A DNA stretch of 50,865 nucleotides. Origin: Escherichia phage vB_EcoS_swan01. Position 1 is the stretch's first letter. Each line of letters begins with the position of its first letter. Below are positions 6,867 to 50,082 of the stretch, one piece after another. Position numbers and translations under genes: made by a program. The notes beneath the pieces were generated by a model. It did not search any database. It was not told where the DNA came from and was given only the letters and a program-made list of their open reading frames with translations. Location: sequence record NC_048202.1; one strand, 5' to 3'.

Positions 6867-6911
6867 AAATAGCACTTTTTGCTAAACGCGATGCCCAAGA
6901 TCGTGTATAGT
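6867..6911 (+). promoter_or_regulatory. motif promoter-like element (AAATAGCACTTTTTGCTAAA, ~21 nt spacer, TATAGT)
   Basis: conserved motif plus -10-like hexamer about 30 nt upstream of the lipoprotein gene ATG. Confidence 0.55.
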
Positions 6912-6942
6912 TGCATCCAACAACAACTAAGGAGTATTGAAG

Positions 6943-7212
6943 ATGAAAAAGTTAATCGCAGTTATCGCCACTGTAGCCGCTCTGACAGGATGCGCAGCGT
7001 CGCCTACTGGCAACTTCAAGGAGATCGATTGCACGGCAAAATTTAACGTTAAAACATTCCCTGTTAACGGATTCCATGAAGTCAAAATTAATGCAGTCCG
7101 CGAAAACAGATTCAGCCAAAAGCAATACAGGTTGAGCGTTGACAATAAAGAAGTTAAATTTATCAACCGTTGGCAAAATGAAAGTAAATTTATTGATTTG
7201 AGGTGTAATTAA
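6943..7212 (+). CDS. lipoprotein, candidate superinfection-exclusion protein (Cor/Llp-like)
   Basis: signal peptide with lipobox LTGC, about 89 aa, AAGGAG RBS. Confidence 0.55.
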   Translation: MKKLIAVIATVAALTGCAASPTGNFKEIDCTAKFNVKTFPVNGFHEVKINAVRENRFSQKQYRLSVDNKEVKFINRWQNESKFIDLRCN

Positions 7213-7490
7213 TGGCGCAATATGGTTATGCAATATATGACGATCGAGGAAGGGAAGTTACAGGACTTTTAACGCCTGTTTTCTTCCTTGATAAATTCAC
7301 TCAGCCATCAGGTAGCAAGACTTACCAAAACAGGCCGCCAGGTAAATCATTGAAAGCAATATATGTTGGCATGAATTCCTGGCGTGGTGGCGACCCTGGC
7401 GCACCAAACTTAGGGGTGAGTGGCGACACCGTTACATGGAGTGGGCTTTCTGGATCTGATTCAAGATATATATATACTTTTTGGGGGTGA
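7212..7490 (+). CDS. hypothetical protein
   Basis: ATG overlaps upstream stop (TAATG). Confidence 0.45.
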   Translation: MAQYGYAIYDDRGREVTGLLTPVFFLDKFTQPSGSKTYQNRPPGKSLKAIYVGMNSWRGGDPGAPNLGVSGDTVTWSGLSGSDSRYIYTFWG

Positions 7491-7492
7491 TA

Positions 7493-8107
7493 ATGTACGG
7501 GATGAGTATAAAAAAATCAGACGGATCGTTATGGTTAAGTCCAGATTTCACTCCAGTTAATCTAATTGATCGGGCTGTAATATCTGCTAATACCGGAACC
7601 GTTTTTACTTCGTCAATTCCTGTTGATAGGGTATGTTTTTTCTTTGTTAGATTGACCGCTAAATCATACATATCATTCACGCAATTTAACAATGGTGGAA
7701 GGCACGCAATAAGACTTGATAGATCTGATAATCAGGGTGAGGTTATTGTTTATGCTTTTAGTAATATGGTTACTCCACCAGGTAGTCACGGCATAGCGTT
7801 TTATAATGCTCATGGTGAAATGGTTTATCATGGAAAAATGAGGCCGCTAGATGCAAAGCAAGTAGGCGTAAGCGGGATCGCATTTGATGTTAACATGGGC
7901 TATCCTTGCGCCATAATGCCATCACTGACAGCATTAAACTCTGTTCCTAATCCGGCTTTAGGTGGATTCATGATTTTTGAGTCTCAAGCTGCCGCGTATG
8001 GTAACGGGATCTACTCTTTTTCTAGGCAGGTTGCACAAACTCCTGGACCTGTTGGTATTTACACCGCTTCATCTGTTTTGGTTATAAATGCATCACACTA
8101 TGATTAA
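7493..8107 (+). CDS. hypothetical protein
   Basis: 204-aa ORF, GGGGTGA RBS, ends at a bidirectional terminator. Confidence 0.5.
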   Translation: MYGMSIKKSDGSLWLSPDFTPVNLIDRAVISANTGTVFTSSIPVDRVCFFFVRLTAKSYISFTQFNNGGRHAIRLDRSDNQGEVIVYAFSNMVTPPGSHGIAFYNAHGEMVYHGKMRPLDAKQVGVSGIAFDVNMGYPCAIMPSLTALNSVPNPALGGFMIFESQAAAYGNGIYSFSRQVAQTPGPVGIYTASSVLVINASHYD

Positions 8108-8111
8108 AATT

Positions 8112-8138
8112 AAAGGGGGCTATGCCCCCTTTTTTTTT
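8112..8138. terminator. bidirectional rho-independent terminator
   Basis: gggggc-tat-gccccc hairpin flanked by A- and T-runs between convergent genes. Confidence 0.7.
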
Positions 8139-11715: not shown

Positions 11716-11762
11716 GACTTTTAACCTTTTGTGCTGTTTCTTGGTTTGCACATTATAAAGGC

Positions 11763-11797
11763 ACAAAAAAACCCGCGCAAGGCGGGTATTTTTTTAT
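11763..11797. terminator. hairpin with flanking A/T runs
   Basis: cccgc-gcaag-gcggg stem-loop between the I-like and J-like genes. Confidence 0.5.
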
Positions 11798-17646: not shown

Positions 17647-17692
17647 TTATAGCACTTTTTGTTAAAAGTGGAATTAATTTATTTGATAGATT
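17647..17692 (+). promoter_or_regulatory. motif copy inverted relative to the late genes (TATAGCACTTTTTGTTAAAA, 22 nt, TAGATT)
   Basis: conserved motif with a -10-like hexamer at canonical spacing, but pointing antisense to the tail genes; in gene sense the motif directly abuts the AAGGAG RBS of the G gene. Confidence 0.45.
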
Positions 17693-21357: not shown

Positions 21358-21400
21358 TTTGTTTCCTCCATAAAAGGCCGTTAAATGTAACGGCCTAGAT

Positions 21401-21445
21401 GATAGCACTTTTTGTTAAAGCGTCAAAGCGTTTTTATGTTATTCA
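21401..21445 (+). promoter_or_regulatory. motif copy inverted relative to the late genes (GATAGCACTTTTTGTTAAAG)
   Basis: conserved motif; a weak sigma70-like arrangement TTGTTA-N17-TATGTT points antisense into 21439..22452; in gene sense the motif precedes a hairpin and the capsid gene RBS. Confidence 0.4.
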
Positions 21446-24885: not shown

Positions 24886-26174
24886 TGATTGCTACCCTCT
24901 GTTGTTCCTGGCTCCGGCTCTACGTCTTGCTCAGGTAATTTAATGTCATTGCCGTCTTTTAGTTTAACGTTAGGCGCAATGGCTCGCAATGTGTCGCGCG
25001 CCTCTTCTGCATCCATGAATTGACCGTCAATAGCCTTACTCAAAGAATCAATGTTCTTGTTCAAGATTTCGGCCTGGTCCTTTTCGCTTGGAACGCTTAA
25101 CGGCGCAAACTGAATGCTCCATTCTTCCTCTTGAATAAGGAACGGGATCAGAAATTCAAGGATTGGTTTGTATTCTTCCTTTCGCTTTCGGTCGATCAGC
25201 TTGTAGAAGGTTTCAAGCGCCGTGTTTTGGCTAGCGCTAACACCGCCAACGTTCTTGTTTTTGAGGATGATTTCATGGATGCCGGAAAGAGATACAATGC
25301 GATCCATCTTCTTTTCCAAGAACGAATCGACGGCAGAAATATCAGAATTTAAAACATCATATTCCTCATCTTCCGCATCAATGCCGATCGCACGGCCTAC
25401 GCCACCCTCATCATCAACTTGAGCAAGTCGCAAACGTGCGGCACTAACACCATCATCATCATCACAAAGATCAGCAAGACCTTTAACTTTCCATACCGCC
25501 TGTTGCTTACGTCGCAACAATTGAGTTGCTAAGTTTTCGCAGTAGTTATAATCACAAATAGCCTCAACAAGTCTCTTATTCAGGATCGACTCACCCCACC
25601 CATCATTTGATTGACGCCGCTGATTTGGTAGCCGCTCACCGTCGATAATACAGACTCGCGAATAGTGAACCTGGTATTCTGGCAAGTCGACACCAGGTGA
25701 AATGGTGTAAATTAATGGCTCACCATATCTTACCTTGCGTGGATTAGTTTCGCGCTTTTCTACCCTAACCTGAAAGCGATCGTAAACGCGAACATCTTCA
25801 AGGATTGCACCAGGCGCTACAGGTGACTTTAACGACCTGCCATCCTGGACGATTGCCACGATTGCAGCGCCACCAAAAAGACGCGACCAGCAAAGCGCAT
25901 CAATGATTTTATCGTTTAGTCGCTTCTCATCCCACAAAGATCTAAAACTTTCCTCATCTTCCACGCCATCAATATTAAATCCAGGCGTCACCATTTCTTC
26001 TGGAACAACGTCGATGATTCGTTTTGCTAGGCCGTCACGAATGTAAAAATCAGCGTGCGTGGTGTATTCGAACCCCTGCATAAAGAAAGGCAACTCTACA
26101 CGCCCATTGCCCTTACTACCCTTGAAAATCTCGTTGTATCCATCGGCCTTAACTAGCCTTGTTTTTTCGCTCAT
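24882..26174 (-). CDS. portal protein
   Basis: about 430 aa, acidic C-terminus, located directly after the large terminase gene. Confidence 0.65.
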   Translation of the reverse strand: MSEKTRLVKADGYNEIFKGSKGNGRVELPFFMQGFEYTTHADFYIRDGLAKRIIDVVPEEMVTPGFNIDGVEDEESFRSLWDEKRLNDKIIDALCWSRLFGGAAIVAIVQDGRSLKSPVAPGAILEDVRVYDRFQVRVEKRETNPRKVRYGEPLIYTISPGVDLPEYQVHYSRVCIIDGERLPNQRRQSNDGWGESILNKRLVEAICDYNYCENLATQLLRRKQQAVWKVKGLADLCDDDDGVSAARLRLAQVDDEGGVGRAIGIDAEDEEYDVLNSDISAVDSFLEKKMDRIVSLSGIHEIILKNKNVGGVSASQNTALETFYKLIDRKRKEEYKPILEFLIPFLIQEEEWSIQFAPLSVPSEKDQAEILNKNIDSLSKAIDGQFMDAEEARDTLRAIAPNVKLKDGNDIKLPEQDVEPEPGTTEGSNQ

Positions 26175-26189: not shown

Positions 26190-26218
26190 ATAAAAAAGGC
26201 TGGAAAAATCCAGCCTTG
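26190..26218 (-). terminator. hairpin plus T-run between TerL and portal genes
   Basis: aggctgga-aaaat-tccagcct followed by T6 on the minus strand. Confidence 0.5.
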
Positions 26219-26229
26219 ATTATATAACT

Positions 26230-26250
26230 TTTTAGCAATTAGTGCTATTT
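26230..26250 (-). promoter_or_regulatory. motif copy with atypical downstream context
   Basis: AAATAGCACTAATTGCTAAAA on the minus strand overlapping the TerL stop (TAG); TATAAT lies only 8 nt after TTGCTA and a terminator hairpin follows. Confidence 0.4.
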
Positions 26251-30392: not shown

Positions 30393-30438
30393 ACTTTACC
30401 AAATGCCCTTGCGGAAGTTTTAACAAAAAGTGCTATTA
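30393..30438 (-). promoter_or_regulatory. motif promoter-like element (AATAGCACTTTTTGTTAAAA, 22 nt, TAAAGT)
   Basis: conserved motif immediately after the stop of 30436..30726, with -10-like hexamer at canonical spacing inside an inverted repeat. Confidence 0.55.
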
Positions 30439-31275: not shown

Positions 31276-31677
31276 TTATTTCCCAGCATTGCGCGCAATC
31301 CCCTTATACATGCCGTAAAAATCATCGCCAGGCTTTTTGAACTTGATCGCATTTCGCGCAAGTCGGCGCATACGTCGCGCATCGTATCTCGCTCTCTGAA
31401 ATGGTGTTTTCATTGCCTTAACATGACGACCGAGATGATCGCTGATTCTCTTAAGCTCAATCAAAACTCCTTGAGTCGCCACTACGCAATAATTATCAAA
31501 GCCAATACGGCGAGTAATGATATAGCCATTATTGATGCGCGGACGGCAAAAGTCACCACTAACACCACGATAAATACTATCCACCGCAACAACCTGGCCC
31601 TTGCTAACGCCACAATATTTATCTGCCCAGGTTACGCGAAATTTTGTTCCAACGCGAATGTCGTTTAACTCCACCAT
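31276..31677 (-). CDS. hypothetical protein
   Basis: start at MVELNDIRVG with GAGAGGAAAC RBS, about 30 nt downstream of the motif promoter. Confidence 0.55.
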   Translation of the reverse strand: MVELNDIRVGTKFRVTWADKYCGVSKGQVVAVDSIYRGVSGDFCRPRINNGYIITRRIGFDNYCVVATQGVLIELKRISDHLGRHVKAMKTPFQRARYDARRMRRLARNAIKFKKPGDDFYGMYKGIARNAGK

Positions 31678-31707
31678 GATTGTTTCCTCTCGTTGATTGG
31701 TGTTTGC

Positions 31708-31753
31708 ATTATAGCGAGGCATTGCGCCCCGCGTTTAGCAATTCGTGCTATTT
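31708..31753 (-). promoter_or_regulatory. motif promoter-like element (AAATAGCACGAATTGCTAA, 22 nt, TATAAT)
   Basis: motif overlaps the TAG stop of the kinase gene; perfect TATAAT at canonical spacing. Confidence 0.6.
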
Positions 31754-33026: not shown

Positions 33027-33073
33027 ACTATACAGCAAGCCCGATGATCTGTTTTTTGCAAAAAGTGCTATTT
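33027..33073 (-). promoter_or_regulatory. motif promoter-like element (AAATAGCACTTTTTGCAAAAAA, then TATAGT)
   Basis: motif overlaps the TAG stop of the small ORF 33068..33229; -10-like hexamer inside an inverted repeat; leader CATCAACAACAAACGAGGA. Confidence 0.55.
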
Positions 33074-34230: not shown

Positions 34231-34448
34231 TGTTTCACTTCCTCAAATTCAGCCATTACCATAGCGTGTGCCATAACCTTAGTGCCTTCGCCGCCGTTCA
34301 GGAACATGCGATGCCCCTTACTATTGCTCACGTAAAAAGATCCGGTTGATGTTTTCAGTTTTTGCGCCGTATAGATTTCGCCAGGCTTGAACATACCAGA
34401 GCAAGCATAGTTAACGGAAACGCATTTCATCTTCTTTTTAATGTACAT
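34227..34448 (-). CDS. small protein, member of a paralogous family
   Basis: start at MYIKKKMKCV with AAGGAG RBS; paralog of 33985..34230. Confidence 0.5.
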   Translation of the reverse strand: MYIKKKMKCVSVNYACSGMFKPGEIYTAQKLKTSTGSFYVSNSKGHRMFLNGGEGTKVMAHAMVMAEFEEVKQ

Positions 34449-34477
34449 CGTTTTATCTCCTTCGTTGAAAGTAGGGC

Positions 34478-34524
34478 CATTATACCTGGCCCCACATTTG
34501 AGTTTTAACAATTCGTGCTATTTA
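34478..34524 (-). promoter_or_regulatory. motif promoter-like element (AAATAGCACGAATTGTTAAAA, ~21 nt, TATAAT)
   Basis: motif directly follows the TAA stop of 34522..35415; perfect TATAAT within an inverted repeat; about 30-nt leader to the next ATG. Confidence 0.6.
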
Positions 34525-35613: not shown

Positions 35614-35815
35614 TAACCCCTTTCACATAAATAACCGTTTAATCTTTGGTGACGGGCTTCACTTCGTCGGTAGCCTCAGTTCAGTGACCTATCTAGCGTT
35701 CTGCCTGGTGGCGAGTGTGATAGTTCTGGCCTCACGGTTGGGAATCCTGACACTTCGATCAAGCCCCTGCGTCGCTCCTCTCCCGCAGCAATCCTTGCCG
35801 CCCGTCTATGTGTGT
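35614..35815 (-). ncRNA. candidate structured 5' leader / noncoding RNA
   Basis: about 200 nt between a motif promoter and the next RBS with no credible ORF; GC-rich with long-range complementarity (GACGGGC...GCCCGUC). Confidence 0.3.
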
Positions 35816-35861
35816 ATTATGCCTGGTTATCGTTTTTGAGTTTTAACAAAAAGTGCTATTT
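35816..35861 (-). promoter_or_regulatory. motif promoter-like element (AAAATAGCACTTTTTGTTAAAA, 22 nt, CATAAT)
   Basis: motif overlaps the TAG stop of the lipoprotein gene; -10-like hexamer at canonical spacing. Confidence 0.6.
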
Positions 35862-36128
35862 TGTCTCGACGGTCATATGTTCTGTCTTCGTGCCTTTGCC
35901 ATTGCTTTTCGACACTTCCCAGCTAGTCGTGCCCTTACAGTTGGTGAAGTAAACAGTGCGATCGTCATAGAATCGGTAAACGGTGCAACCGTCAGCGGTG
36001 AATAGCTCCCTTACGCTGTAGTCATCGCCAGGGTTAGCCATCTGCACATTGCCAACATGCGCGCCATCTTCTTTGCATCCGGTCAGGAATGCCATTGCCG
36101 CCAAAACGCTGATTAATGCCTTTTTCAT
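35856..36128 (-). CDS. lipoprotein
   Basis: start at MKKALISVLAAMAFLTGC (signal peptide plus lipobox); ATGA overlap with the upstream gene. Confidence 0.55.
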   Translation of the reverse strand: MKKALISVLAAMAFLTGCKEDGAHVGNVQMANPGDDYSVRELFTADGCTVYRFYDDRTVYFTNCKGTTSWEVSKSNGKGTKTEHMTVETK

Positions 36129-36589
36129 TGCTCTTCCTCTTTGATGATTTCGCGGATCATATCCTGGTAGCGGCTTACGCCCTCGCAAGCCCCAGCCAGT
36201 TTATCCCCTTCCAGGTCCACGATGTTCGGGATTGCTGCCAGTATGCGATCGGCAAACTTTTTGATCGCCCTTGCCTTGATGGCTGGCAATTCTTCTGGTG
36301 TGATGATTTTCCTTTTCGATTCGCGGACCATGCGGAAAACGTAAAATTTATCATCTTCCGTTTCCTCTACCTTGATACTTACCCGACCTGCGGCCCTTAC
36401 TTCTGGAACGCGGTTGATAATGGTCCGGCTGTAGGATGAACTGCGCGTGATCTTGTAGCAGTCGTCACCGCTTAACATTCCGGCCAGGTCAATTAGTGAC
36501 ATTTTATACTCTTCAATATCGCCACTAGCCAGGCGGCGACCAAGCTCGCGAAGCCAATCGCAATAGTCCTTAGTGGTCTTCTGTTCCAT
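36125..36589 (-). CDS. hypothetical protein (first gene of a leftward operon)
   Basis: start at MEQKTTKDY with GGAGGAAAGGA RBS, about 30 nt downstream of a consensus sigma70 promoter. Confidence 0.55.
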   Translation of the reverse strand: MEQKTTKDYCDWLRELGRRLASGDIEEYKMSLIDLAGMLSGDDCYKITRSSSYSRTIINRVPEVRAAGRVSIKVEETEDDKFYVFRMVRESKRKIITPEELPAIKARAIKKFADRILAAIPNIVDLEGDKLAGACEGVSRYQDMIREIIKEEEQ

Positions 36590-36620
36590 TTCCTTTCCTC
36601 CAGTTGTTGACTGTTGGCGC

Positions 36621-36649
36621 ATTATAAAAGCTATTTGGTGCGTGTCAAT
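36621..36649 (-). promoter_or_regulatory. consensus sigma70 promoter (TTGACA-N17-TATAAT)
   Basis: perfect -35 and -10 hexamers with 17-bp spacer read on the minus strand, upstream of gene 36125..36589. Confidence 0.65.
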
Positions 36650-37083: not shown

Positions 37084-37180
37084 ATGATTAAACGTGATTA
37101 CTTTTCTCATCAAATTTGCAAAGGCAATCATCATTTTGACGTGATTTGATTACGAATGATTACTTTTGATTATTTCGATC
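37084..37180. repeat. iteron-like direct and inverted repeats of ATGATT/TGATTAC
   Basis: at least 5 copies of (A)TGATTAC(TTTT) within ~100 bp just upstream of the first rightward motif promoter. Confidence 0.5.
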
Positions 37181-37201
37181 ACAATCCTGGTGCTAACCGT
37201 C

Positions 37202-37247
37202 AAATAGCACTTTTTGTTAAAAATCAGGCCGCCTGATCGGGTACATT
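37202..37247 (+). promoter_or_regulatory. motif promoter-like element (AAATAGCACTTTTTGTTAAAA, 22 nt, TACATT)
   Basis: first promoter of the rightward small-gene block; leader CATCGAAACGAACC precedes the RBS. Confidence 0.6.
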
Positions 37248-37282
37248 ACACACATCGAAACGAACCGCTCAGGAGATAGTAA

Positions 37283-37555
37283 ATGAACATCAGCAAAACC
37301 ACTTTCAATTTCGCTAAGCGTCACGGTCTGGAACTGACTGTTGAAGATTTTGGCGATGTTCTGCAACTCTGCATTTGGGAAGCAGATAACGATTGCGAGT
37401 GGCTTTGCTCTTATCGTATCAACTACGATTGCTTGACCTGGCACGGCAATATCTATCTGCCGCAAGAAGTGAAAGAAGAATTGCCAGCGACTATCAACAA
37501 CGAAGTTTTCTTGCGCCAGGTGCTGAAATTTATCAGTAAGGAGATCAAAAAATAA
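37283..37555 (+). CDS. hypothetical protein
   Basis: 90 aa, AGGAGA RBS. Confidence 0.55.
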   Translation: MNISKTTFNFAKRHGLELTVEDFGDVLQLCIWEADNDCEWLCSYRINYDCLTWHGNIYLPQEVKEELPATINNEVFLRQVLKFISKEIKK

Positions 37556-38244: not shown

Positions 38245-38508
38245 ATGAAAATTAATGCACCTATTCCAGTTAAGCGCAAAGCACGTTTGCTAAATAACGG
38301 ATGTTACGCCCTGCGGCCCGCATTTAAGGATCGCACATTTCCGGTTATCGTTAACGTGTCTCACGTAAGCCGTAGCGGAAACCTGGTATTCGTTAAAGGT
38401 GAAGATCTGACGGCACTTGGATTCTATGGCGGTGTTCACGGCGAACCGCTCGGATTCTGGCTTGTAAATCCGTTAACTGGAGAGCGTGAAATCGAATTTC
38501 TGGACTAA
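38245..38508 (+). CDS. hypothetical protein
   Basis: 87 aa, AAGGAG RBS. Confidence 0.55.
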   Translation: MKINAPIPVKRKARLLNNGCYALRPAFKDRTFPVIVNVSHVSRSGNLVFVKGEDLTALGFYGGVHGEPLGFWLVNPLTGEREIEFLD

Positions 38509-38552
38509 ATAGCACTTTTTGTTAAAAACGATGCGCTGCTGATTGGTATAGT
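38507..38552 (+). promoter_or_regulatory. motif promoter-like element (AAATAGCACTTTTTGTTAAAA, 22 nt, TATAGT)
   Basis: motif starts inside the TAA stop of 38245..38508; -10-like hexamer inside an inverted repeat. Confidence 0.6.
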
Positions 38553-39718: not shown

Positions 39719-40429
39719 ATGTATAAAGGTTTAATATTCTCCCTATTTGATGGATCTGGTAAAGCAGTTAAAGATTGGGCTGATAATGGCTATAAGTGCA
39801 TTTGCTTTAATGCTGACGGCGGCGATCACGGTGATTACCAGTCAGTGCGCATACAGCATGAGAATATCGAATACGTTAACGTCTGGATTGATGATGCTTT
39901 TTATGTTAAGGCAATCAATAATGAGTGGGGCAATCCTGATTTTATTATGGCGTTCCCTCCTTGCACCGACCTTGCAAATAGCGGATCTCGCCATTGGGCC
40001 AAAAAACGCCTTGAGAATCCATCGTTCCAGGATGAGGCCGCCGACACTTGCAGAATCGCGGCTGATATAGCTGATTATTTCGGTGTTCCTTACATGATCG
40101 AAAATCCGGTTGGCAAGTTGTCAACGTTATGGCGTAAGCCTGATTATACGTTCCATCCGTGCGATTACGCTGGCTATCTGCCGGAAGATGATAAACATCC
40201 CGACTTCCCTGATATTATTCCGGCGCGTGATCGCTATTTTAAGAAAACGTGCCTCTGGACTGGCAACGGCTTTGTTATTCCTCCGCGCGCTTTAATCCTG
40301 CCGAAAGAGGAAGACAAAGATAATCCAGGCTGGGCCAAAACTGGCGGCAAGTCATCGCGCACAAAGATGATCCGCTCCCTCACTCCGCGCGGATTTGCTC
40401 GCGCCGTCTTTGAGTCAAACTCAAAATAG
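39719..40429 (+). CDS. DNA (cytosine-5) methyltransferase-like protein (putative)
   Basis: motif I-like LFDGSG, motif IV-like FPPCTD...SG and motif VI-like ENPVG in the canonical order; start could also be ATG 39713. Confidence 0.45.
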   Translation: MYKGLIFSLFDGSGKAVKDWADNGYKCICFNADGGDHGDYQSVRIQHENIEYVNVWIDDAFYVKAINNEWGNPDFIMAFPPCTDLANSGSRHWAKKRLENPSFQDEAADTCRIAADIADYFGVPYMIENPVGKLSTLWRKPDYTFHPCDYAGYLPEDDKHPDFPDIIPARDRYFKKTCLWTGNGFVIPPRALILPKEEDKDNPGWAKTGGKSSRTKMIRSLTPRGFARAVFESNSK

Positions 40430-40469
40430 CACTTTTTGTTAAAAGCCAGGTGTAAAAACCTGGCATAAT
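40424..40469 (+). promoter_or_regulatory. motif promoter-like element (AAATAGCACTTTTTGTTAAAA, 22 nt, CATAAT)
   Basis: TAG stop of the upstream gene lies at motif positions 4-6; inverted repeat in the spacer; leader CATCGAACAAACAAAGGAG. Confidence 0.6.
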
Positions 40470-40885: not shown

Positions 40886-41103
40886 TAAACAGTGAAAACC
40901 GTTACAAAGTAACGCATTCTACCACAAAGACTTTCAAGCCTGGCGATATAGTCAGGCCCATCAAAAAAACTGCGGTAGGTTGGCTGATTGGTTTTTCATA
41001 TCATAAGGCGCTTTACTTTACGTTTAAGGATGGGATTACAGGAGAATGCTACAGCGACCGCCAGCCTGATCGACTTCTGGTTGCAATAGAGCGGATCAAA
41101 TAG
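40882..41103 (+). CDS. small protein (possible member of the small paralog family)
   Basis: 73 aa; TFKPGDIV motif resembles MFKPGEIY of 34227..34448. Confidence 0.5.
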   Translation: MINSENRYKVTHSTTKTFKPGDIVRPIKKTAVGWLIGFSYHKALYFTFKDGITGECYSDRQPDRLLVAIERIK

Positions 41104-41143
41104 CACTTTTTGACAAAACGGGGTAGTATTGGGACGTTAAAAT
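41098..41143 (+). promoter_or_regulatory. motif promoter-like element (AAATAGCACTTTTTGACAAAA, 22 nt, TAAAAT)
   Basis: variant with TTGACA in place of TTGTTA; TAG stop embedded; precedes the 526-aa P-loop protein gene. Confidence 0.55.
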
Positions 41144-41171: not shown

Positions 41172-42752
41172 ATGTTTTCATTAGAAACGAACAAATTAAC
41201 TCCACAACAAATAATCGCTATGGCTGAAAGCCAGAACCTCTCACCAGTTCGCGTATCAATTCAGGCTAACGGCTATCGCCAGTCGTCCAGCTTTTGGGGC
41301 GACGTAAAGGATGTGAATAGCGGTCACGATCGCTACCCCGTTATTTCTCTTGGTAATGATATTGATGTTGTCGGCAAGTTATCACGCAGCATTGCGCGAT
41401 CCGTTCAATTCCCTGAATCATCGGCTTACATGCACTTTATCGGCTGCATTTCTGCCGCTATGCTTGGACGCTTTACGGTTGACTATCACGGAACCGATCA
41501 GCCGACTGCGCTTTACGTCGTTACAAGCCAGCCGCCGTCAACTGGTAAATCTGCGATCAACAGCATGGCTATTGCTCCGATGATTGCGGAAGTTGAGAAG
41601 ATCAACGAGCAACGCCGCAAGGAAAGAAAGAAAATACAGGCAAAGCTGGCAGGTCTTGCAAAGGAGATGAAAAGCGAAAGATCCGGCGCTGATATGGAAT
41701 CTCTATACCAGGAAAAAGAGGATCTGGAGGAAAAGCTGGAAAAAATGTGTGATATAACTTTTCCTGTTTCAGATACAACTCCAGAAGGCTTGGCGAAAAT
41801 CAACAACAAGCAAGGTAACTTTGCCGTAATATCTGATGAAGCAACAAGTATTAACAGTCTGTTAGGCTTGACCTATGCAAATAGCGAAAGGAAGACTAAC
41901 AGTGAGTTAGTGCTTAAGGCGTGGGATAATGGTCACGTATCAATTGCCCGTGCTAATGCTGACAATAATATGAGTTTTCGCGCGCTTGGATGTATGAGCG
42001 TCATAGCCCAGGATGAAACGATAAGCGGAATCATGGACGCTGGATCGCGAGGCATCGGTGTTAGTGAGCGTTTTTTGTTGGTCCGCGAGGAATCATTCTT
42101 AGGCCGTCGCTCATTCATTGATGAAAATGGTGATTCTACCTATGAGGCGGTGGATTCTGAATTGAAAGCCCAATATTATCAATTGGTGCATAACATCATG
42201 AGCGAATCAAATATATCGCTGAAAATAAGCCGTTCAGCTATGCGAGTGCTCAACATTGCTCGCCAGGATATGGAACCGCATCTTGCAGACGGAGGAAAGT
42301 ATTCTCATACAATGTTACGCGGTGCGCTGGGTAAAATGGATAAACAGGTGATCAGGCTTGCTTCCGTCCTGCATGTTATCCGTAACTGGTTTAATCCTGC
42401 CGGATACCCGCAGAAGTCGAAAGAGATCGACGTGGAAACAATGCAAGAGGCGTTGATCATGTTTCAGGAATTGAGCAAAACATACATTAGCGCCGCCAAT
42501 GCTTCTGGTTATGCTGGTGATGATGCTGAAATGGGTAAATTGATTGAATTGATCACGAGGCACGGCAAGGCTAATAAAGGGATTCTGAATATCCGCGCCC
42601 TGTACGAATCAGCGAGAAAGGTAAAACCTTTCGTTGGTCAGGCTGGCGTAATGAAAAGGATAGAAGGGCACTTACTGCCAATGCTGGAAGAAAGAAATTA
42701 TGTTTGTGTGATTAATGGTGTTATTTTTGTCAATCCAATACTGCTGGGATGA
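41172..42752 (+). CDS. P-loop NTPase, replication-associated (putative)
   Basis: 526 aa; Walker A-like SQPPSTGKSA; no further family assignment possible by eye. Confidence 0.5.
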   Translation: MFSLETNKLTPQQIIAMAESQNLSPVRVSIQANGYRQSSSFWGDVKDVNSGHDRYPVISLGNDIDVVGKLSRSIARSVQFPESSAYMHFIGCISAAMLGRFTVDYHGTDQPTALYVVTSQPPSTGKSAINSMAIAPMIAEVEKINEQRRKERKKIQAKLAGLAKEMKSERSGADMESLYQEKEDLEEKLEKMCDITFPVSDTTPEGLAKINNKQGNFAVISDEATSINSLLGLTYANSERKTNSELVLKAWDNGHVSIARANADNNMSFRALGCMSVIAQDETISGIMDAGSRGIGVSERFLLVREESFLGRRSFIDENGDSTYEAVDSELKAQYYQLVHNIMSESNISLKISRSAMRVLNIARQDMEPHLADGGKYSHTMLRGALGKMDKQVIRLASVLHVIRNWFNPAGYPQKSKEIDVETMQEALIMFQELSKTYISAANASGYAGDDAEMGKLIELITRHGKANKGILNIRALYESARKVKPFVGQAGVMKRIEGHLLPMLEERNYVCVINGVIFVNPILLG

Positions 42753-43144
42753 TTATGTTTTTGCTTGATCTGTATAAATGGTGTGAGTCATACGACTGGT
42801 TTAACAGGCAGCACATAGCCAAATTTATCTATCAGCATAGAGAATGTGAGCGGCTCGCACGGGCCGCCGGACTTACTCCGCGAATGTTCGCCAGCCTTGC
42901 ATCTAAGGAATTTTGCGCAAGAATGATGACGGCTGGCTATATAGATGGGGTATGCGGTAAATACTGGTCCAAAGGATCGTCAAAGCGGCCTTTCGGATTC
43001 GAATTTTATAGCCTGGATGGTATGCGCAACGACTGGATCAGGGATATGGCTAGAATAGTGGAGATGGGCGATGATGAATTGTTCCAGGCAAAAGCTAATA
43101 GACAAGATCTTGAAGCACTGCGCCGTAAATTCAATATCACATGA
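42749..43144 (+). CDS. hypothetical protein
   Basis: 131 aa, ATGA overlap with upstream gene. Confidence 0.5.
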   Translation: MIMFLLDLYKWCESYDWFNRQHIAKFIYQHRECERLARAAGLTPRMFASLASKEFCARMMTAGYIDGVCGKYWSKGSSKRPFGFEFYSLDGMRNDWIRDMARIVEMGDDELFQAKANRQDLEALRRKFNIT

Positions 43145-43265
43145 TGATTTTATTCATGCTTTACTTACGCTACTTTATTCAGATATGCGAGCTTTTAGCA
43201 CCACTGAACATGTTTTATGCAATGATGATGGTGTGTTATTGGTTACAGTAAAGCGTATGGAATAG
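43071..43265 (+). CDS. hypothetical protein (uncertain start, overlaps upstream gene)
   Basis: its TAG stop is embedded in the conserved motif as for other genes, but the ORF overlaps 42749..43144 by 74 nt. Confidence 0.3.
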   Translation: MMNCSRQKLIDKILKHCAVNSISHDDFIHALLTLLYSDMRAFSTTEHVLCNDDGVLLVTVKRME

Positions 43266-43305
43266 CATTTTTTGTTAAAACTCCCGACCTTGTGTCGGGT
43301 ATATT
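43260..43305 (+). promoter_or_regulatory. motif promoter-like element (GAATAGCATTTTTTGTTAAAA, 22 nt, TATATT)
   Basis: hairpin cccgac-cttgtg-tcggg in the spacer; leader CATCGAAACGAACC. Confidence 0.55.
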
Positions 43306-43342
43306 TGTTTCATCGAAACGAACCAACCAAAAAGGAAAAATT

Positions 43343-43567: not shown

Positions 43568-43570
43568 AAA

Positions 43571-44680: not shown

Positions 44681-44703
44681 TTTTATTCTCCATATTAATT
44701 AAA

Positions 44704-44825: not shown

Positions 44826-45941
44826 TCAATTCATCATTTCTGGATAGTGAACAAATCGCCCAACCTCTCCATGCTCTTTGTCGTAAATGATAACCGCCGC
44901 ACGGCGTCGAGATCTCCAGCCACCTCGCGCGGCGTATGCGTCTTTTGCCGCCAGGGTGCTATGCACCTCAACGATGCCAAGCGACGTTTCTGTCACGGTC
45001 TGGTGATGCCAGTGCCCTACGTGCGCATACATCGTTTTTGAGTTTCCGAAGTCCTCCCGCCAATCTGACGCGCACATCATTAGCAAAGTCTCCGGTTTAC
45101 GCACTGTGTGCCCGTGATGGTACGCAAGGAAAGTTTTTCCGTATTGCGTGTGGTGCACAACGCGAGGTGAAACATCAACGTAAACGCGCGGCTCGTTTTC
45201 ATATGCTGCCGCCATTGCTGCGCGCAGCCAAATCATTCCTGATTGGTCATGATTGCCCTCTACGATCTGGACTTCAACATGTTTATGCTTTAACAACATT
45301 TTATTGATTGCGCGTCGCATTGCACGGATGGCAACGTAAACCAATTTTGCATATCGACTATCTTGATCCAGTACGTGACCGCTTGCAGGTGTAACCGCCT
45401 CCAGGCCGTCGCTATGCAGCATATCGCCACCAATCAGGATGACAGCCTTTTCGCTATCCGGTGCGCACATTAAAGCATAGTCGATAAAGTTATTCATAAC
45501 GCGCTCTGCCGTGGCAGTATCCCAATTTTCGCCGCATTCGTGCTTATGGGCCATAGCTCCTAAGTGCATGTCAAAGATCGGATACAAGGAAAGCGTTTCG
45601 TTATAGTCGCGCTCCTGTAATGGAACCGGATCTAATCGCGGCACTTCCTCGCTAAATGCCTCCATTGCTGCGAGCATTAATGCTTCTAATTGCTCTTTAT
45701 CCTTGCTGGTTTTAGTCCACTTTAGGATTATGTTGCCTTCTTTGTCAGTCATTACTGACTCACCATGAACTCCAAAACCAGGCGCTCCAATGGTGGATAC
45801 CTGGCCTTGCTTTGCAAGTCGCGCCGCGCGACGCTCGACGCTTCTCACATTCATTCCGTACTCTTGAGCGATCTGTTTATATGTCTTACCCGCCGCCCGT
45901 TCGATCTTGAATTGCTCATCTGTAATTTTTACATTTTTCAT
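44826..45941 (-). CDS. calcineurin-like metallophosphatase with N-terminal HTH-like domain
   Basis: GDMLHSD and GNHD metallophosphoesterase motifs; N-terminal TYKQIAQEYGMNVRSVERR helix-turn-helix-like segment; start at MKNVKIT with AGGTGG RBS. Confidence 0.6.
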   Translation of the reverse strand: MKNVKITDEQFKIERAAGKTYKQIAQEYGMNVRSVERRAARLAKQGQVSTIGAPGFGVHGESVMTDKEGNIILKWTKTSKDKEQLEALMLAAMEAFSEEVPRLDPVPLQERDYNETLSLYPIFDMHLGAMAHKHECGENWDTATAERVMNNFIDYALMCAPDSEKAVILIGGDMLHSDGLEAVTPASGHVLDQDSRYAKLVYVAIRAMRRAINKMLLKHKHVEVQIVEGNHDQSGMIWLRAAMAAAYENEPRVYVDVSPRVVHHTQYGKTFLAYHHGHTVRKPETLLMMCASDWREDFGNSKTMYAHVGHWHHQTVTETSLGIVEVHSTLAAKDAYAARGGWRSRRRAAVIIYDKEHGEVGRFVHYPEMMN

Positions 45942-46035
45942 TCTGCCACCTATCTCATCACTATATGGTACATAACTGTAACAGCGATGATAACGGGTAA
46001 CGGTAGAACAAACAAGCGCCACATGATAACTATCC

Positions 46036-46278
46036 TCATTTATAATATTTGCGAGGCTCTCGGATTTTAGCCATTGCCTCTTTGAAATCAATTTTTGTTG
46101 GAACTGCTGGAACTCTTACCATTTTTCGCGGCCTTTCCTTGAGGAAAGTCATCTTATCGCCGCTAATTATGCTCACATCTGCAATATCAAAGTATTGCGC
46201 GATCTTCTTTATATCGTCGGCTATTCCGCATTCTTTAGCGTGATTCCATACCGCCTCTCTACCTTGCTCAACCTTCAT
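46036..46278 (-). CDS. hypothetical protein
   Basis: start at MKVEQGREAV inside track ORF 46036..46299. Confidence 0.45.
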   Translation of the reverse strand: MKVEQGREAVWNHAKECGIADDIKKIAQYFDIADVSIISGDKMTFLKERPRKMVRVPAVPTKIDFKEAMAKIREPRKYYK

Positions 46279-46453: not shown

Positions 46454-46479
46454 TTCCTCACGTTCGTTTCGATGAAATA

Positions 46480-46525
46480 ATTATGCCCGACAAAATGCCG
46501 GGCGTTTTAACAAAAAGTGCTATTA
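46480..46525 (-). promoter_or_regulatory. motif promoter-like element (AATAGCACTTTTTGTTAAAA, 22 nt, CATAAT)
   Basis: follows the stop of 46523..46780; inverted repeat in the spacer; conserved leader. Confidence 0.6.
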
Positions 46526-46780
46526 GTGGATCATTCCGTTCTGAAAATTCCACGAATCGACAAACTCTTGCATGTCATTTCTTATTTGTTCGTGCCATTT
46601 TTCAAGAGGTAGTTTTCTTGTATCCTCAAAGCTCATATCTAATGCGCTTGAAAATTCCCACGGATCGCAATCAATCATCTTTTTCACGTTAGGGTTTTTA
46701 TCAAGTGCATCGCACACCATAGCGCGAAATAACAACCACTCGCCAGTTTCATTTAAATAAACGCTTCTCTCTTTTTTCAT
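46523..46780 (-). CDS. hypothetical protein
   Basis: 85 aa. Confidence 0.5.
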   Translation of the reverse strand: MKKERSVYLNETGEWLLFRAMVCDALDKNPNVKKMIDCDPWEFSSALDMSFEDTRKLPLEKWHEQIRNDMQEFVDSWNFQNGMIH

Positions 46781-46784
46781 CGTG

Positions 46785-47510: not shown

Positions 47511-47549
47511 TTCATTTCTCCGCTATTAAAAGCTATCTCGTGTTATTGA

Positions 47550-47595
47550 ATTATGGCGCAATCCATCGCGCCAGTTTTAACAAAAAGTGCTATTT
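47550..47595 (-). promoter_or_regulatory. motif promoter-like element (AAATAGCACTTTTTGTTAAAA, 22 nt, CATAAT)
   Basis: TAG stop of the VRR-NUC gene embedded in the motif; drives the Dam gene. Confidence 0.6.
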
Positions 47596-48009
47596 AAGCA
47601 TGTATTCAATAGCTAACTTAAACTGATTAAATCCGTAGGCGACCGCAGCGAATCCTCCTAAACTGCGAACGCGACGCAAAAAAGCCTTTTGTTCATCGCT
47701 GACTGGTGATGCTTTCCCCTTGCCTGATTTATTAACTCGTTTGATCTCAATCGCTGCAAAGGGGTATTTTCCGTTTGAACCAATCAGGATGATGAAATCG
47801 CTTACCCCCTTAACCAAGCCGGACTGCTGATCAATCATCGCCGTTACTTTCGACTTCTCATTCTCGTTTACCGTATGCCACGCTAGCAAATAAGGATGAG
47901 CATAAGTCAACCACTGAAAGCTATCTATCTGGTGATTAACTTCCTTTCTCGTGTCGGTTGGATCTCTTTCGTAAAACTCAAGATAATCTCCTTTATCAGT
48001 TATAGCCAT
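47590..48009 (-). CDS. VRR-NUC domain nuclease (putative)
   Basis: 139 aa; D...E.K motif (DFIIL...AIEIK) characteristic of PD-(D/E)XK VRR-NUC domains; follows the helicase gene. Confidence 0.55.
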   Translation of the reverse strand: MAITDKGDYLEFYERDPTDTRKEVNHQIDSFQWLTYAHPYLLAWHTVNENEKSKVTAMIDQQSGLVKGVSDFIILIGSNGKYPFAAIEIKRVNKSGKGKASPVSDEQKAFLRRVRSLGGFAAVAYGFNQFKLAIEYMLK

Positions 48010-50006
48010 TAAACAAACTCCCGTTTTGCAATGTTATCCTCACCTTTGCCGTTTTTGCGATGCGTTACGCGTACAGGCGGCATGATGTGATGAGCGTATG
48101 ACATTATTTTACGAGCATTTCTATAGCTCGCCACCATACCAGCAATCTTGCGATCCGGTATGTGCTGCAATGCTATTTTTCTCCATATCGTCCGGCAAAT
48201 GTTGCTTTCTGACTCAGGGAAAAATCTTTCGTATGCCTTGAACGTGTCGCCGTTGGCCTCAAGCTCATAGCAAAAAATAATTCCTTTCTGGTTTTTCGTC
48301 ATATCAACGCGGAAAGATTTAACGTTGCACCAATCGTTTTTGGTGTAGTGCTTACCGCTTAACTTCTCGTTAGGATCGACAAGAGAAATATCGCAACAAC
48401 GGCATACTCTCGCCACTACGTCGTTTTTTGTTCCGCAACCGCGCTTGATTATCTTTTTCGTTCTCTGATCTACCTGGTCCTCGCAAATTCTGTAAGTCCA
48501 AAAATGCTCACATCGCTTCCCGTTATCGTCTACGTGCATACATCGGCGAGCGTAAAAGCTGTTTAGCGTTCCACATATCGGACAAGTCTTAGGCTCTTTC
48601 CCGTTTGTAAATCTCTTTTGGAATTGCGCTTGCTCAAGGATTGGATCGAAATACAAATCACCTAACTCATCCATAGTACCTGCAAAATCCAATACAAGAT
48701 GATCTTTTTTCTTGAATCCCTGCTCAATGTGCCATTGCTTAAGCAGTCGCATGCCGCGCCCCAAAAGCTGGATAAGCAATGTTAGAGATCCTATCTTTCT
48801 CAGTATTACAGAAGTATCCCAAAACGGAACGTTAACGCCAGTGGTAAGCGCCTGTACCTGGAAGATGTATTTTACTTTTCCCTCGTATGCCTCCCTCAGC
48901 CACTCTTTACGCTGATTATCTCCAGTCTTGCCAGTTATGATCCTGTATTCAACGCCTGGCGGCAGTGCGGCGGCAGCCTCCTTGCAGTGCCTTTCCCCTG
49001 CGCATGTAACTAAAACTCCGTTCCTGTCTTTGCATATCTCATGGACTTTAGCCATGATTTTCTGTGTCATTGTTGCGTCTTGATGGATCTTTTCTTCCAT
49101 CTTGCGCAATGTTTTAGCGTCAAAGTCTGAAACGCCATCCTCGCTACTGGCTTCGAACTCTGAAAGGTCATAACCCAGGTCGCCTACGTCGCCGAAGTTT
49201 GTTGGCACTACCGAACCGAATTTGATTAAGTAGTTTGTGTCTATGTTAGTCACCTGCTCACGCCAGAATCCATTTTTGTTCTTATCTTCAACCAGTATTG
49301 GAACCACGCCGCGAAACTCAGATCCAGTCATGCCGAATATTCGCAATTCGTGCCCGTATGCCTCGCGACACCTACGCATCATTTCCATGATTATTACGGT
49401 GTACTGTGTGCGCCCTGTTCCGAACATTGGATCGCCATTGGAATCAAATTGCTGTTCTTCTCCAATCAGTACAGGCAAATCCTTCTTAGTGGTCATCTGC
49501 TGGTAAGATTCATTATTTTCTATCGCGTCCGCGAGATCCTCCCAATCCACCTGGTGACATTCATCAATACCGATAACGTGCGGAACATAATCACCTAACG
49601 ACTTAAACAATCCGTTTACTACAGTGCCCTCAGAACCGACTACGATCGGAAAGTATGCGCTTTTTGTTTTCAGTCCGGCGCAATAGATTGAGTTTGGCAC
49701 GCCAAGATTGCTGATCTCTTCCGAATCCTGATCAACAATTTCAGCCTGGCGAGCAAGGACCATCATTTTCAATCCCATTTTGCGGCATTGCGCCGCAACC
49801 ATCGCAAACATCAATGTTTTGCCAGCCGATACAGAAGCCTTAACAAAGAAAGGATGCTCATAGTTTTTCATGCGCTTTGCGATCTCTGCATACGCAACGC
49901 ACTGATAAGGATAAGGCACTATATTGCCAACCGTGAATCGCTCTTGGATGCTTTTTATTACTGCCTCGCCTAATGCTGATATTTGTTTTTCGATATTTGG
50001 AATCAT
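48009..50006 (-). CDS. SF2 DNA helicase (DEAD/DEAH-like) with C-terminal Cys-rich domain
   Basis: Walker A VSAGKT, DECH box, and multiple CxxC pairs in the C-terminus. Confidence 0.8.
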   Translation of the reverse strand: MIPNIEKQISALGEAVIKSIQERFTVGNIVPYPYQCVAYAEIAKRMKNYEHPFFVKASVSAGKTLMFAMVAAQCRKMGLKMMVLARQAEIVDQDSEEISNLGVPNSIYCAGLKTKSAYFPIVVGSEGTVVNGLFKSLGDYVPHVIGIDECHQVDWEDLADAIENNESYQQMTTKKDLPVLIGEEQQFDSNGDPMFGTGRTQYTVIIMEMMRRCREAYGHELRIFGMTGSEFRGVVPILVEDKNKNGFWREQVTNIDTNYLIKFGSVVPTNFGDVGDLGYDLSEFEASSEDGVSDFDAKTLRKMEEKIHQDATMTQKIMAKVHEICKDRNGVLVTCAGERHCKEAAAALPPGVEYRIITGKTGDNQRKEWLREAYEGKVKYIFQVQALTTGVNVPFWDTSVILRKIGSLTLLIQLLGRGMRLLKQWHIEQGFKKKDHLVLDFAGTMDELGDLYFDPILEQAQFQKRFTNGKEPKTCPICGTLNSFYARRCMHVDDNGKRCEHFWTYRICEDQVDQRTKKIIKRGCGTKNDVVARVCRCCDISLVDPNEKLSGKHYTKNDWCNVKSFRVDMTKNQKGIIFCYELEANGDTFKAYERFFPESESNICRTIWRKIALQHIPDRKIAGMVASYRNARKIMSYAHHIMPPVRVTHRKNGKGEDNIAKREFV

Positions 50007-50038
50007 CTTAAACCTTTAAAAAATGCCATTTGGAGTAT

Positions 50039-50082
50039 ATAATAGACTCATTACAATAAACTGTTTTAACAAAAAATGCTAT
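50039..50082 (-). promoter_or_regulatory. motif promoter-like element (ATAGCATTTTTTGTTAAAA, 22 nt, TATTAT) in a divergent region
   Basis: drives the helicase gene; on the opposite strand the motif abuts the GAGGTGA RBS of the HTH gene. Confidence 0.55.

Follow-up and report, generated by a model that had tools for sequence, protein, structure and literature searches.

Results

The repeat family and its setting in the swan01 genome

The DNA examined here, called the window throughout, is the whole 50,865-bp sequence record NC_048202.1 of Escherichia phage vB_EcoS_swan01, and our subject is a 21-bp motif that recurs between its genes together with the promoter-like sequences that follow it. The window is the complete, circularly permuted genome of a T1-like siphovirus (Drexlerviridae, Tempevirinae, Warwickvirus-like). 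Escherichia phage Phunderstruck is 98.5% identical to it over a 12-kb stretch, the phages tonn and tinuso are also close, and the gene functions given below are taken from the Phunderstruck annotation. The primase reading frame spans the two ends of the window (50506-50865 and 2-814, + strand), which indicates a circular permutation cut within the primase gene.

A preliminary description of this DNA had listed at least 18 near-identical copies of the motif. Searching the window with the 21-mer and up to three mismatches gave 17 matches, against 0.01 expected, and a weight matrix built from these 17 copies recovered an eighteenth at 31733. The matrix scores were bimodal, with 18 sites at or above 23 bits and the next at 10 bits, the background level seen in a shuffled control. 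Mismatch search and matrix rescan together yield exactly 18 copies, and every start position listed earlier was correct. The copies are given below with their predicted promoter elements, followed by two other features that are referred to later (class II is explained further on).

888-908, - strand: motif AAATAGCACTTTTTGCTAATG, antisense to the flanking + strand genes (primase, tail fibre), with no hexamer at class II distance; a terminator lies ~30 nt downstream
6867-6911, + strand: predicted promoter; motif 6867-6887, TATAGT 6906-6911, predicted start ~6918, start codon 6943
17647-17692, + strand: motif and TAGATT (17687-17692), antisense, between two - strand late genes; given the bidirectional terminator past it, only a short RNA would be made
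21400-21440, + strand: motif and TATGTT (21435-21440), antisense, reading TTGTTA-17-TATGTT; adjoins the terminator and the ribosome-binding site of the major capsid gene
26192-26250, - strand: motif 26230-26250 with core GCACTAATTGCTAAA, holding the TAG stop of the large terminase gene, with no hexamer at class II distance; an intrinsic terminator (~26192-26217, - strand) lies between the motif and the portal gene
30393-30438, - strand: predicted promoter; motif 30418-30438, TAAAGT 30398-30393, hairpin enclosing the -10, start codon 30360
31708-31753, - strand: predicted promoter; motif 31733-31753 (GAA variant), TATAAT 31713-31708, start codon 31677
33027-33073, - strand: predicted promoter; motif 33053-33073 with core GCACTTTTTGCAAAA, TATAGT 33032-33027, start codon 32995
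34479-34523, - strand: predicted promoter; motif 34503-34523, TATAAT 34484-34479, hairpin enclosing the -10, start codon 34448
35816-35861, - strand: predicted promoter; motif 35841-35861, CATAAT 35821-35816, no hairpin
37202-37247, + strand: predicted promoter, the first of the rightward early block; motif 37202-37222, TACATT 37242-37247, start codon 37283
38507-38552, + strand: predicted promoter; motif 38507-38527, TGgTATAGT with its hexamer at 38547-38552, hairpin GATGCGC...GCGCATC enclosing the -10, start codon 38584
40424-40469, + strand: predicted promoter; motif 40424-40444, holding the TAG stop of the Dcm methylase gene, CATAAT 40464-40469, spacer hairpin CCAGGT...ACCTGG, start codon 40499
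41098-41143, + strand: predicted promoter; motif 41098-41118 (TTGACA variant), TAAAAT 41138-41143, start codon 41172 (helicase)
43260-43305, + strand: predicted promoter; motif 43260-43280 (GCAT variant), TATATT 43300-43305, terminator-like spacer hairpin with a T-rich tail, start codon 43343
46480-46525, - strand: predicted promoter; motif 46505-46525, CATAAT 46485-46480, spacer hairpin, start codon 46447
47550-47595, - strand: predicted promoter; motif 47575-47595, CATAAT 47555-47550, spacer hairpin, start codon 47510 (Dam methylase)
50039-50084, - strand: predicted promoter; motif 50064-50084, TATTAT 50044-50039, start codon 50006 (helicase); on the upstream side, 9 nt separate the motif from the start codon of a divergently oriented regulator gene
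50094-50570, + strand: this regulator gene, for a Cro/YdaS-like protein with a single helix-turn-helix (HTH), homologue of the T1 gp23 'transcriptional regulator' and a rival candidate for binding the motif
36621-36648, - strand: motif-free, perfect sigma-70 consensus promoter TTGACA-16-TATAAT, the contrast class

A -10 element at a fixed distance from the motif

According to the preliminary description, the TTGTTA end of the motif is followed in 14 copies by a spacer of 21-23 nt and a TAnnnT hexamer. This was borne out, since the best hexamer of these copies lies 18-20 nt past motif position 21, which equals 21-23 nt past TTGTTA, and a fifteenth copy with a hexamer is that at 50064, where TATTAT stands at 19 nt. 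The hexamers of the window are TATAGT, TATAAT, CATAAT, TAAAGT, TACATT, TAAAAT, TATATT, TATTAT and TAGATT. In thirteen of these fifteen copies the hexamer is followed by a predicted leader of 22-33 nt and then by a Shine-Dalgarno sequence and a start codon, in agreement with the ~30-nt leader and ribosome-binding site described earlier. The earlier statement that the motif is co-directional with the downstream gene holds for most copies, but not for 888(-), 17647(+) and 21400(+), which are antisense to adjoining late genes. These three and 26230(-), which has a terminator instead of a properly spaced hexamer, are the four copies that depart from the layout. Wherever a copy has a co-directional upstream gene (12 of 12), the stop codon of that gene lies within the motif, either as the TAG of ATAGCAC or as a TAA at the first motif bases.

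For a comparison within the family, the same matrix was applied to T1, TLS, Rtp and Klebsiella phage KP36, which stand for four Drexlerviridae lineages and together with the window make five Drexlerviridae genomes, and to Sodalis phage SO-1 (Dhillonvirus) as the outgroup. The search of related phages, which had been proposed as a check, gave 22 copies in T1, 20 in TLS, 19 in Rtp and 16 in KP36, and zero in SO-1. When the best -10-like hexamer was sought 8-31 nt after each of the 95 copies, it stood at exactly 19 nt in 69 of them and within 18-20 nt in 79, the null being ~4% per offset at random positions. A hexamer of more than 4 bits at the 19-nt offset is present in 76% of the copies and in 1.4% of random positions. 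In the 68 promoters with this offset, A(-11) and T(-7) are both invariant (68/68) and T(-12) occurs in 55; G(-14) is seen in 57, T(-15) in 30, C(-1) in 42 and A(+1) in 56. Their -35 window reads AAAACn and contains no -35 hexamer. The invariant A(-11) and T(-7), combined with AAAACn at -35, point to genuine sigma-70-type -10 elements that lack a -35 element. If the start is placed 7 nt past the hexamer, the motif occupies about -52 to -32, and the start region that follows is conserved as CATCGAAACGAA in the phage promoters. We consider it very probable that the repeat family represents activator-type sigma-70 promoters.

The preliminary description also held that TTGTTA lies too far from the -10 to be its -35 element, and we concur: the spacer is 22 nt in most copies compared with the standard 16-19 bp, the sole 17-nt exception being 21400(+). 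TTGTTA as a -35 element, with or without extrusion of the hairpin to shorten the spacer, was rejected because the hexamer 17 nt downstream is not -10-like and because extrusion removes the -10. A -10 hidden in the motif on either strand (TGtTAAAAn or TGcTATTTn) was rejected as well, the T at -7 not being conserved. The sigma-70 promoters at the strand switches had been described as free of the motif, which agrees with the perfect TTGACA-16-TATAAT promoter without the motif at 36648-36621(-) and with a 10/12 sigma-70 match at 6499-6472(-), before the exonuclease gene.

The distribution of the element beyond these genomes was examined by scanning IMG/VR for the motif followed by 20 nt and TAnnnT, which gave at least 120 stretches. 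Among the matches listed nearly all are T1-like, and two contigs are Murrayvirus, represented by phage IME_EC2. The virion genes of this podovirus are P22-like; apart from one small protein, all it has in common with the window is a T1-like module for replication and recombination (helicase, VRR-NUC, primase, RecE, Erf and two methylases). It carries six canonical copies, each facing a gene and with a hexamer 19-20 nt downstream; they lie at 57+, 4740-, 7050-, 28249-, 36212- and 37520-. The hosts of the motif-bearing phages that we saw are all enterics (Escherichia, Shigella, Klebsiella, Salmonella and Kosakonia).

The motif reads as a consensus marbox

The marbox, the site of the host regulators MarA, SoxS and Rob, came into consideration through the consensus that Martin et al. 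reportedly gave in 1999, and this prompted a test of the motif. From position 3 the motif reads ATAGCACTTTTTG(T/C)TAAAA, and its core GCACTTTTTG(T/C)TAAA is a perfect consensus marbox. Compared with the published marbox 5'-GCAHWWWWTGYYAAA-3' (PMC6900184), the phage core GCACTTTTTGTTAAA agrees at 15 of 15 positions. In the five genomes, 54 of the 95 copies match the consensus perfectly and 86 have at most one mismatch.

An independent matrix, built solely from 87 Salmonella sites mapped by chromatin immunoprecipitation sequencing (ChIP-seq) and containing no phage sequence, gave the same picture. All 18 repeats of the window scored above 9 bits and the repeats made up 17 of the top 18 hits, with scores of 15.2-18.6 bits compared with host sites whose median was 11.5 and whose maximum was 18.5. 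The repeats of T1, TLS, Rtp and KP36 behaved likewise, and the best hit in the outgroup reached 12.5 bits. Several phage cores are identical or nearly so to bound host sites: the core of 26230(-) equals the consensus of the host ChIP sites, and that of the copy at 33053 is identical to a Salmonella RamA/SoxS ChIP site.

In promoters of class II, the marbox is in forward orientation and overlaps the -35 region, being centred between -36 and -55 (PMC12052159) or, by an alternative definition, lying 30-42 bp upstream of the start (PMC10268841), and a missing -35 element is their hallmark (PMC10268841). With the start 7 nt past the hexamer, the phage core is centred near -40/-41, and the marbox is forward relative to transcription in 15 of the 18 window copies, as judged from the -10, the ribosome-binding site and the start codon. 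The repeats combine the consensus, the forward orientation, the overlap with -35 and a -10 without a -35, and would on these features be class II marbox promoters.

The likeness to micF of Escherichia coli MG1655 is particularly close. This promoter reads GCACTGAATGTCAAA, 20 nt, TAGAAT, with the annotated RNA start 8 nt past the hexamer, and its distance of 20 nt from AAA to the hexamer is the same in 69 of the 95 phage copies. Both have a degenerate -35 beneath the forward marbox, AAAACA in micF and AAAACn in the phages, and a site centred near -41. The two halves of the marbox, RE1 (GCAC) and RE2 (YYAAA), are 7 bp apart, and with RamA micF reads CACT-7X-AAA centred near -41, the protein being placed just upstream of sigma region 4 (PMC8811837). 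The phage motif is likewise CACT-7X-AAA. Compared with micF, however, the phage sites are nearer to consensus and number 15-22 per 50-kb lytic genome, and the phage promoters have a hairpin around or beside the -10, the conserved CATCGAAACGAA, and the stop codon of the upstream gene inside the marbox. The fumC site is weaker, with a spacing of 19-20 nt. The marbox of the marRAB operator, GATTTAGCAAAACGTGGCAT (reverse complement ATGCCACGTTTTGCTAAATC), shares 16 of 20 positions with the phage variant ATAGCACTTTTTGCTAAAAC, but it is a class I site in backward orientation upstream of a good -35, unlike the forward class II layout of the phages.

The activator is probably supplied by the host

Queries for MarA, SoxS and the N-terminal domain of Rob and a profile of the three proteins were run against all six frames of T1, TLS, Rtp, KP36, the window and IME_EC2, and neither tblastn nor the profile returned anything credible. 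A MarA match in IME_EC2 (E = 0.001) was rejected as spurious, as it lies out of frame in an annotated endonuclease gene and was not seen with SoxS, Rob or the profile. Pfam found zero AraC-type domains among 21 candidate proteins. The lack of a MarA-like protein in the phages examined makes a host-supplied activator most likely. Homologues of the marA, soxS and rob genes occur in many enteric bacteria (PMC10268841).

The preliminary description had proposed a phage-encoded factor or a modified polymerase, and this has to be weighed against the host. A DNA-binding protein of the phage, whether the product of 50094-50570, that of 42749-43144 or an unrecognised factor, would then activate or repress at the motif, and the likeness to the marbox would be coincidence or mimicry. 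The Cro/YdaS-like regulator (158 aa, called 'transcriptional regulator' in relatives) is kept in all five Drexlerviridae across subfamilies, at 49-63% identity and with its HTH region conserved, and its gene begins 9 nt from the copy at 50064; its structure model shows a single HTH at low overall confidence (predicted local distance difference test, pLDDT, 59.8). For the 131-aa product of 42749-43144 the model (pLDDT 85.6) is winged-helix-like and resembles MarR/GntR folds weakly; neither of the two models has a MarA fold, and no structural match of the latter to MarA was found. In addition, the dyad TAGCA-N5-TGCTA is present in about half of the copies, position 16 being C in 35/68. On the other hand, conservation of the motif is asymmetric: the invariant G6 faces a variable Y in the dyad, and the AAA lacks a mirror counterpart, a pattern more in keeping with a monomer carrying two HTH motifs than with a dimer. 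For this reason the dimer operator was rejected as a separate reading and is kept merely within the phage-factor alternative.

IME_EC2 also speaks against such a factor. It has six canonical copies, and homologues of the Cro-like regulator, of the winged-helix protein and of the phosphoesterase encoded at 44826-46091(-) in the window were not detected in it. The only non-enzyme protein common to IME_EC2 and the window, of 90 aa, belongs to no known family and was rejected as the common factor because it is absent from T1, TLS, Rtp and KP36. The presence of motif promoters in IME_EC2 without the HTH candidates leaves no plausible transcription factor common to all carrier genomes. Moreover, a perfect marbox match with an orientation and spacing identical to micF is unlikely to arise by chance, and the promoters of the first-expressed genes could not rely on a protein still to be made. 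We therefore regard a phage-encoded factor as unlikely, and the suggestion of the preliminary description was abandoned on three grounds: the motif is a consensus marbox, no phage MarA was found, and IME_EC2 carries the promoters without the HTH candidates. What the sequences favour, and what we take to be probable, is that a host protein of the MarA/SoxS/Rob family is the activator at host-activator-dependent class II promoters.

Two side observations concern the proteins just named. The phosphoesterase (421 aa), whose homologue in T1 is the gp16 'DNA repair exonuclease', possesses at its N-terminus a weak HTH like sigma-70 region 4, below the Pfam threshold (E = 0.0018). The 90-aa protein (phrog_6147), encoded at 37283-37555(+) in the window and at 37171-37389(-) in IME_EC2 with 55% identity, is in both genomes the first gene behind a motif promoter.

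Other explanations of the motif

In a factor-free promoter, the A/T-rich motif would serve the alpha C-terminal domain as UP-like or curved DNA and, together with G(-14) and the -10, would suffice for the sigma-70 polymerase of the host. The T-tract and A-tract at -43 to -32 agree with this, G(-14) in 57 of 68 promoters makes a partial extended -10, and the authors of the TLS reannotation raised the UP-element idea (PMC11447400). The invariant G-47, C-46, C-44 and G-38 are, however, atypical of UP elements, and the preliminary description was right to take the GCAC core as pointing to a sequence-specific factor rather than an UP element. The UP consensus of Estrem et al. 1998 reportedly consists of A/T-only tracts at -59 to -38, from which register the tracts of the motif are displaced by ~8 bp. 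With T(-15) in 30 of 68, most promoters also lack a full TGn extended -10. This explanation we hold to be very unlikely.

The last alternative is a boundary element, that is, a terminator, an RNA-processing or stabilising signal in read-through RNA, a stoperator-type site (an idea also raised by the TLS authors, PMC11447400) or a recombination hotspot of mobile cassettes; the stop codons inside the motif, the nearly universal hairpins, some of them with a T-rich tail and annotated as terminators in T1, and the occurrence of copies in either orientation next to late genes would suit it, but it leaves the fixed 19-nt distance to the hexamer, the invariant A(-11)/T(-7) and the CA start unexplained, most hairpins lack a U-tract and an RNA signal needs no match to a DNA-binding consensus, so that we give it hardly any credence. 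In a comparison with stoperators of the mycobacteriophage L5 type, asymmetric sites along the direction of transcription at which a phage repressor halts elongation, the orientation bias and the intergenic location fitted, no repressor was identified, and IME_EC2 lacks the HTH candidates; the fixed distance to the -10 points to initiation. Boundary roles and promoter function could nevertheless coexist.

Several known classes of site were also tried and rejected. Relative to the sigma-54 consensus (TGGCAC-N5-TTGCW), in which GG and GC stand exactly 10 bp apart, the motif has AG instead of GG and the register of G and GC is off by 2. Of the sigma-32 (CCCCAT occurs in some discriminators) and sigma-28 consensus and the sites for ArcA, OmpR, PhoB, CRP, Fis, IHF, DnaA and OxyR, compared by eye, none fits in sequence and register both. 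Nor do the repeats belong to the MotA-box middle promoters, since the box lies 19 nt from the hexamer with its centre near -41.

Hairpins near the -10

The inverted repeats mentioned in the preliminary description proved to be a general feature, as a stable hairpin occurs between motif and start in 75 of 78 promoters. The mean free energy is -11.4 kcal/mol compared with -5.1 for random genomic 39-mers, and the mean z against shuffles is -3.1. In 47 promoters the stem encloses the -10 hexamer, with the dyad centre mostly at the first base of the hexamer, and in 28 the hairpin lies just upstream of it. The stem sequences vary while pairing is kept (GGGCA/TGCCC, GGCCA/TGGCC, GGCACA/TGTGCC, GGGGTA/TACCCC). 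In a single fixed register, 52.6% of the cells are paired compared with 39-44% for slid partners and 46.9% for column shuffles, and none of 1000 shuffles reaches this value. One fixed register for the whole family was nevertheless rejected, because it accounts for part of the pairing only and the hairpins occupy several registers. Some of the upstream-type hairpins are followed by a T-rich stretch. In IME_EC2 they instead occupy the 5' leader, downstream of where transcription is predicted to start.

The predicted start is situated past the 3' arm, so that hairpin formation is possible only in DNA or in RNA read through from the upstream gene. Our guess is that the hairpins serve in such RNA as partial terminators or as stabilisers of the 3' end, fitted into the sole sequence left free in very compact intergenic space.

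Antisense copies and other observations

The three antisense copies of the window (888-908(-), 17647-17667(+) and 21400-21420(+)) abut the ribosome-binding site of a gene on the opposite strand, namely those for the tail fibre, the tape-measure chaperone and the major capsid protein. A bidirectional terminator within ~50 nt of each would permit only an RNA of 35-50 nt. Syntenic antisense copies in other subfamilies were found for 888-908(-) in T1 (34900+) and Rtp (33760+), for 17647(+) in T1 (18832-), and for 21400(+) in T1 (15068-) and TLS (15024-). Antisense RNA, a roadblock and a decoy are candidate roles.

Degenerate look-alikes of the marbox, GCACAAAAGGTTAAA, occur in the window at 11720-11734(-), in TLS at 24906+ and in T1 at 8360+. 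They lie directly on the Shine-Dalgarno regions of late genes (tail fibre; small terminase in T1), just past a terminator, and no -10 was found at class II distance from them. On the host side, several RamA, SoxS and Rob ChIP-seq peaks of Salmonella SL1344 at ~2.76 Mb are situated beside genes whose names are phage-style (gpP, cIIa; PMC10268841 Table 1). One of these peak sites is identical to a phage motif core, which suggests that marboxes may also occur in prophages.

The predicted +1 to +12 of the phage promoters are conserved as CATCGAAACGAAC, for example at window positions 37254-37266, 43312-43324 and 46473-46461, and are followed by an A/C-rich leader poor in G and U; start region and leader may constitute a translation or stability signal. 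Downstream of the promoters at 31733 and 34503, the starts annotated in the close relative fall inside or upstream of the predicted -10 (31677-31722 and 34448-34487, - strand), and the ATGs at 31677 and 34448, both with a good Shine-Dalgarno sequence, fit better as starts. The promoter at 35841 is followed by ~196 nt (35614-35809, - strand) with no convincing open reading frame (ORF), merely one of 28 codons beginning with TTG; this segment, which extends up to the next gene, shows no unusual degree of structure (z +1.3) and no match in Rfam, and an Rfam scan of the whole window gave no match to a non-coding RNA. The sigma-70 promoter at 36621-36648(-) sits at the main strand switch, and its -10 touches the start codon of the ORF at 36125-36622, so this ORF start has possibly been called too far upstream.

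Discussion

The arrangement described above suggests how the repeats could work. Each repeat would be the activator site of a sigma-70 promoter devoid of a -35 hexamer. The 20-bp marbox ATAGCACnnnTTGYTAAAAn would lie forward at ~-50 to -31, assuming a start 7 nt past the hexamer, and would be followed by a spacer of 18-19 nt, G(-14), TAnnnT at -12 to -7 and a CA start, and then by an A/C-rich leader of 22-33 nt, a Shine-Dalgarno sequence and ATG. Such a layout would be that of a class II MarA/SoxS/Rob promoter like micF of E. coli. A monomeric activator of the AraC family with two HTH motifs would read GCAC and YYAAA in adjacent major grooves, occupy the usual place of sigma region 4 and recruit RNA polymerase by protein contacts. 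The host could supply Rob, which is constitutive, MarA or SoxS, which are stress-induced, or RamA in Klebsiella. Rob is reported to have a much higher DNA affinity than MarA or SoxS and to be largely aggregated until induced (PMC10268841). It is possible, and we propose it tentatively, that Drexlerviridae and Murrayvirus have outsourced most of their early and middle transcription to host MarA/SoxS/Rob (RamA) through 15-22 class II marboxes of consensus strength per genome.

A number of points weigh against a host activator of this kind. The evidence comes from sequence only, with starts, binding and dependence inferred from it. T1-like phages grow very well on unstressed laboratory E. coli. 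Such cells have little MarA and SoxS, and most of the Rob in them is reported to be aggregated (PMC10268841); given such growth, a strict dependence on the three proteins would be surprising. Drexlerviridae do have conserved DNA-binding candidates, and the Cro-like HTH gene abuts one copy of the motif. The imperfect dyad formed by about half of the copies could be read by a dimer, the conserved stretch runs 1-2 nt beyond the 20-bp marbox on its upstream side (motif positions 1-2 being A), and the three antisense copies, as well as a few copies on ribosome-binding sites, misfit the role of a simple activator site. The promoters may only be boosted by host factors, or sites of consensus strength may capture a small active pool. 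Should the host reading be wrong, the perfect mimicry of a host site by that of a phage factor would itself demand explanation.

The motif family had been described before. A 2024 reannotation of TLS describes a 21-nt direct repeat, aaATAGCACnnnTTGnTAAAA, at 18 intergenic places ~76 nt upstream of start codons, with GAA, AAA and TTT sub-types and resemblances listed in T1, Rtp and Rogue1 (PMC11447400). Its authors suggested stoperators, enhancer sites or UP elements and called the function an unanswered question (PMC11447400). The TLS repeat is the same element as the motif of the window. A fixed distance to a -10, hairpins, a host factor and an identity with the marbox do not appear in that report, and while it has all copies along transcription, we find three antisense copies that are conserved also in T1 and TLS (PMC11447400). 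Within the open-access literature, we found no paper connecting the marbox, MarA or Rob with T1-like phages and no transcriptome or start-site map of any T1-like phage. The repeat itself is thus already published in this literature, and the new link would be its apparent identity as a marbox.

Two other phage systems invite comparison. Middle promoters of T4 that depend on MotA have a good -10 and no -35, and an upstream box read by the activator replaces the contacts of sigma region 4; the MotA box is centred near -30, 11-13 bp (about 12) from the -10, and both phage MotA and AsiA are required. The phage motif resembles this class in its good -10, the absence of a -35 and the upstream activator box, but unlike the MotA box it stops 19 nt short of the hexamer, with its centre near -41, and an activator encoded by the phage was not found. 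The PeSL (promoter-early stem-loop) cassettes of T4-type phages are repeated promoter and stem-loop units at gene boundaries among small variable early genes, and modules of this type may promote modular shuffling. They differ from the phage motif module in promoter type and in the order of elements.

The class II marbox reading makes the question of repeat function in T1-like phages, left open in the TLS report (PMC11447400), experimentally simple. Class II promoters of the MarA/SoxS/Rob type would here occur in an unexpected place, a virulent phage, and at an unusual density, and would offer synthetic biology compact parts of consensus strength that respond to MarA/SoxS/Rob. Were the reading true, this would be a clear case of a virulent phage family that wires its gene expression to the stress and antibiotic-resistance regulon of the host, and the development of the phage would be tied to signals of bile, antibiotic and oxidative stress. 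The finding would bear on phage-antibiotic combinations: these regulators are inducible by salicylate, bile, paraquat and some antibiotics, and TolC, the receptor of TLS, is itself under marbox control. Replicating phage DNA could also titrate the regulators away from the efflux and stress genes of the host.

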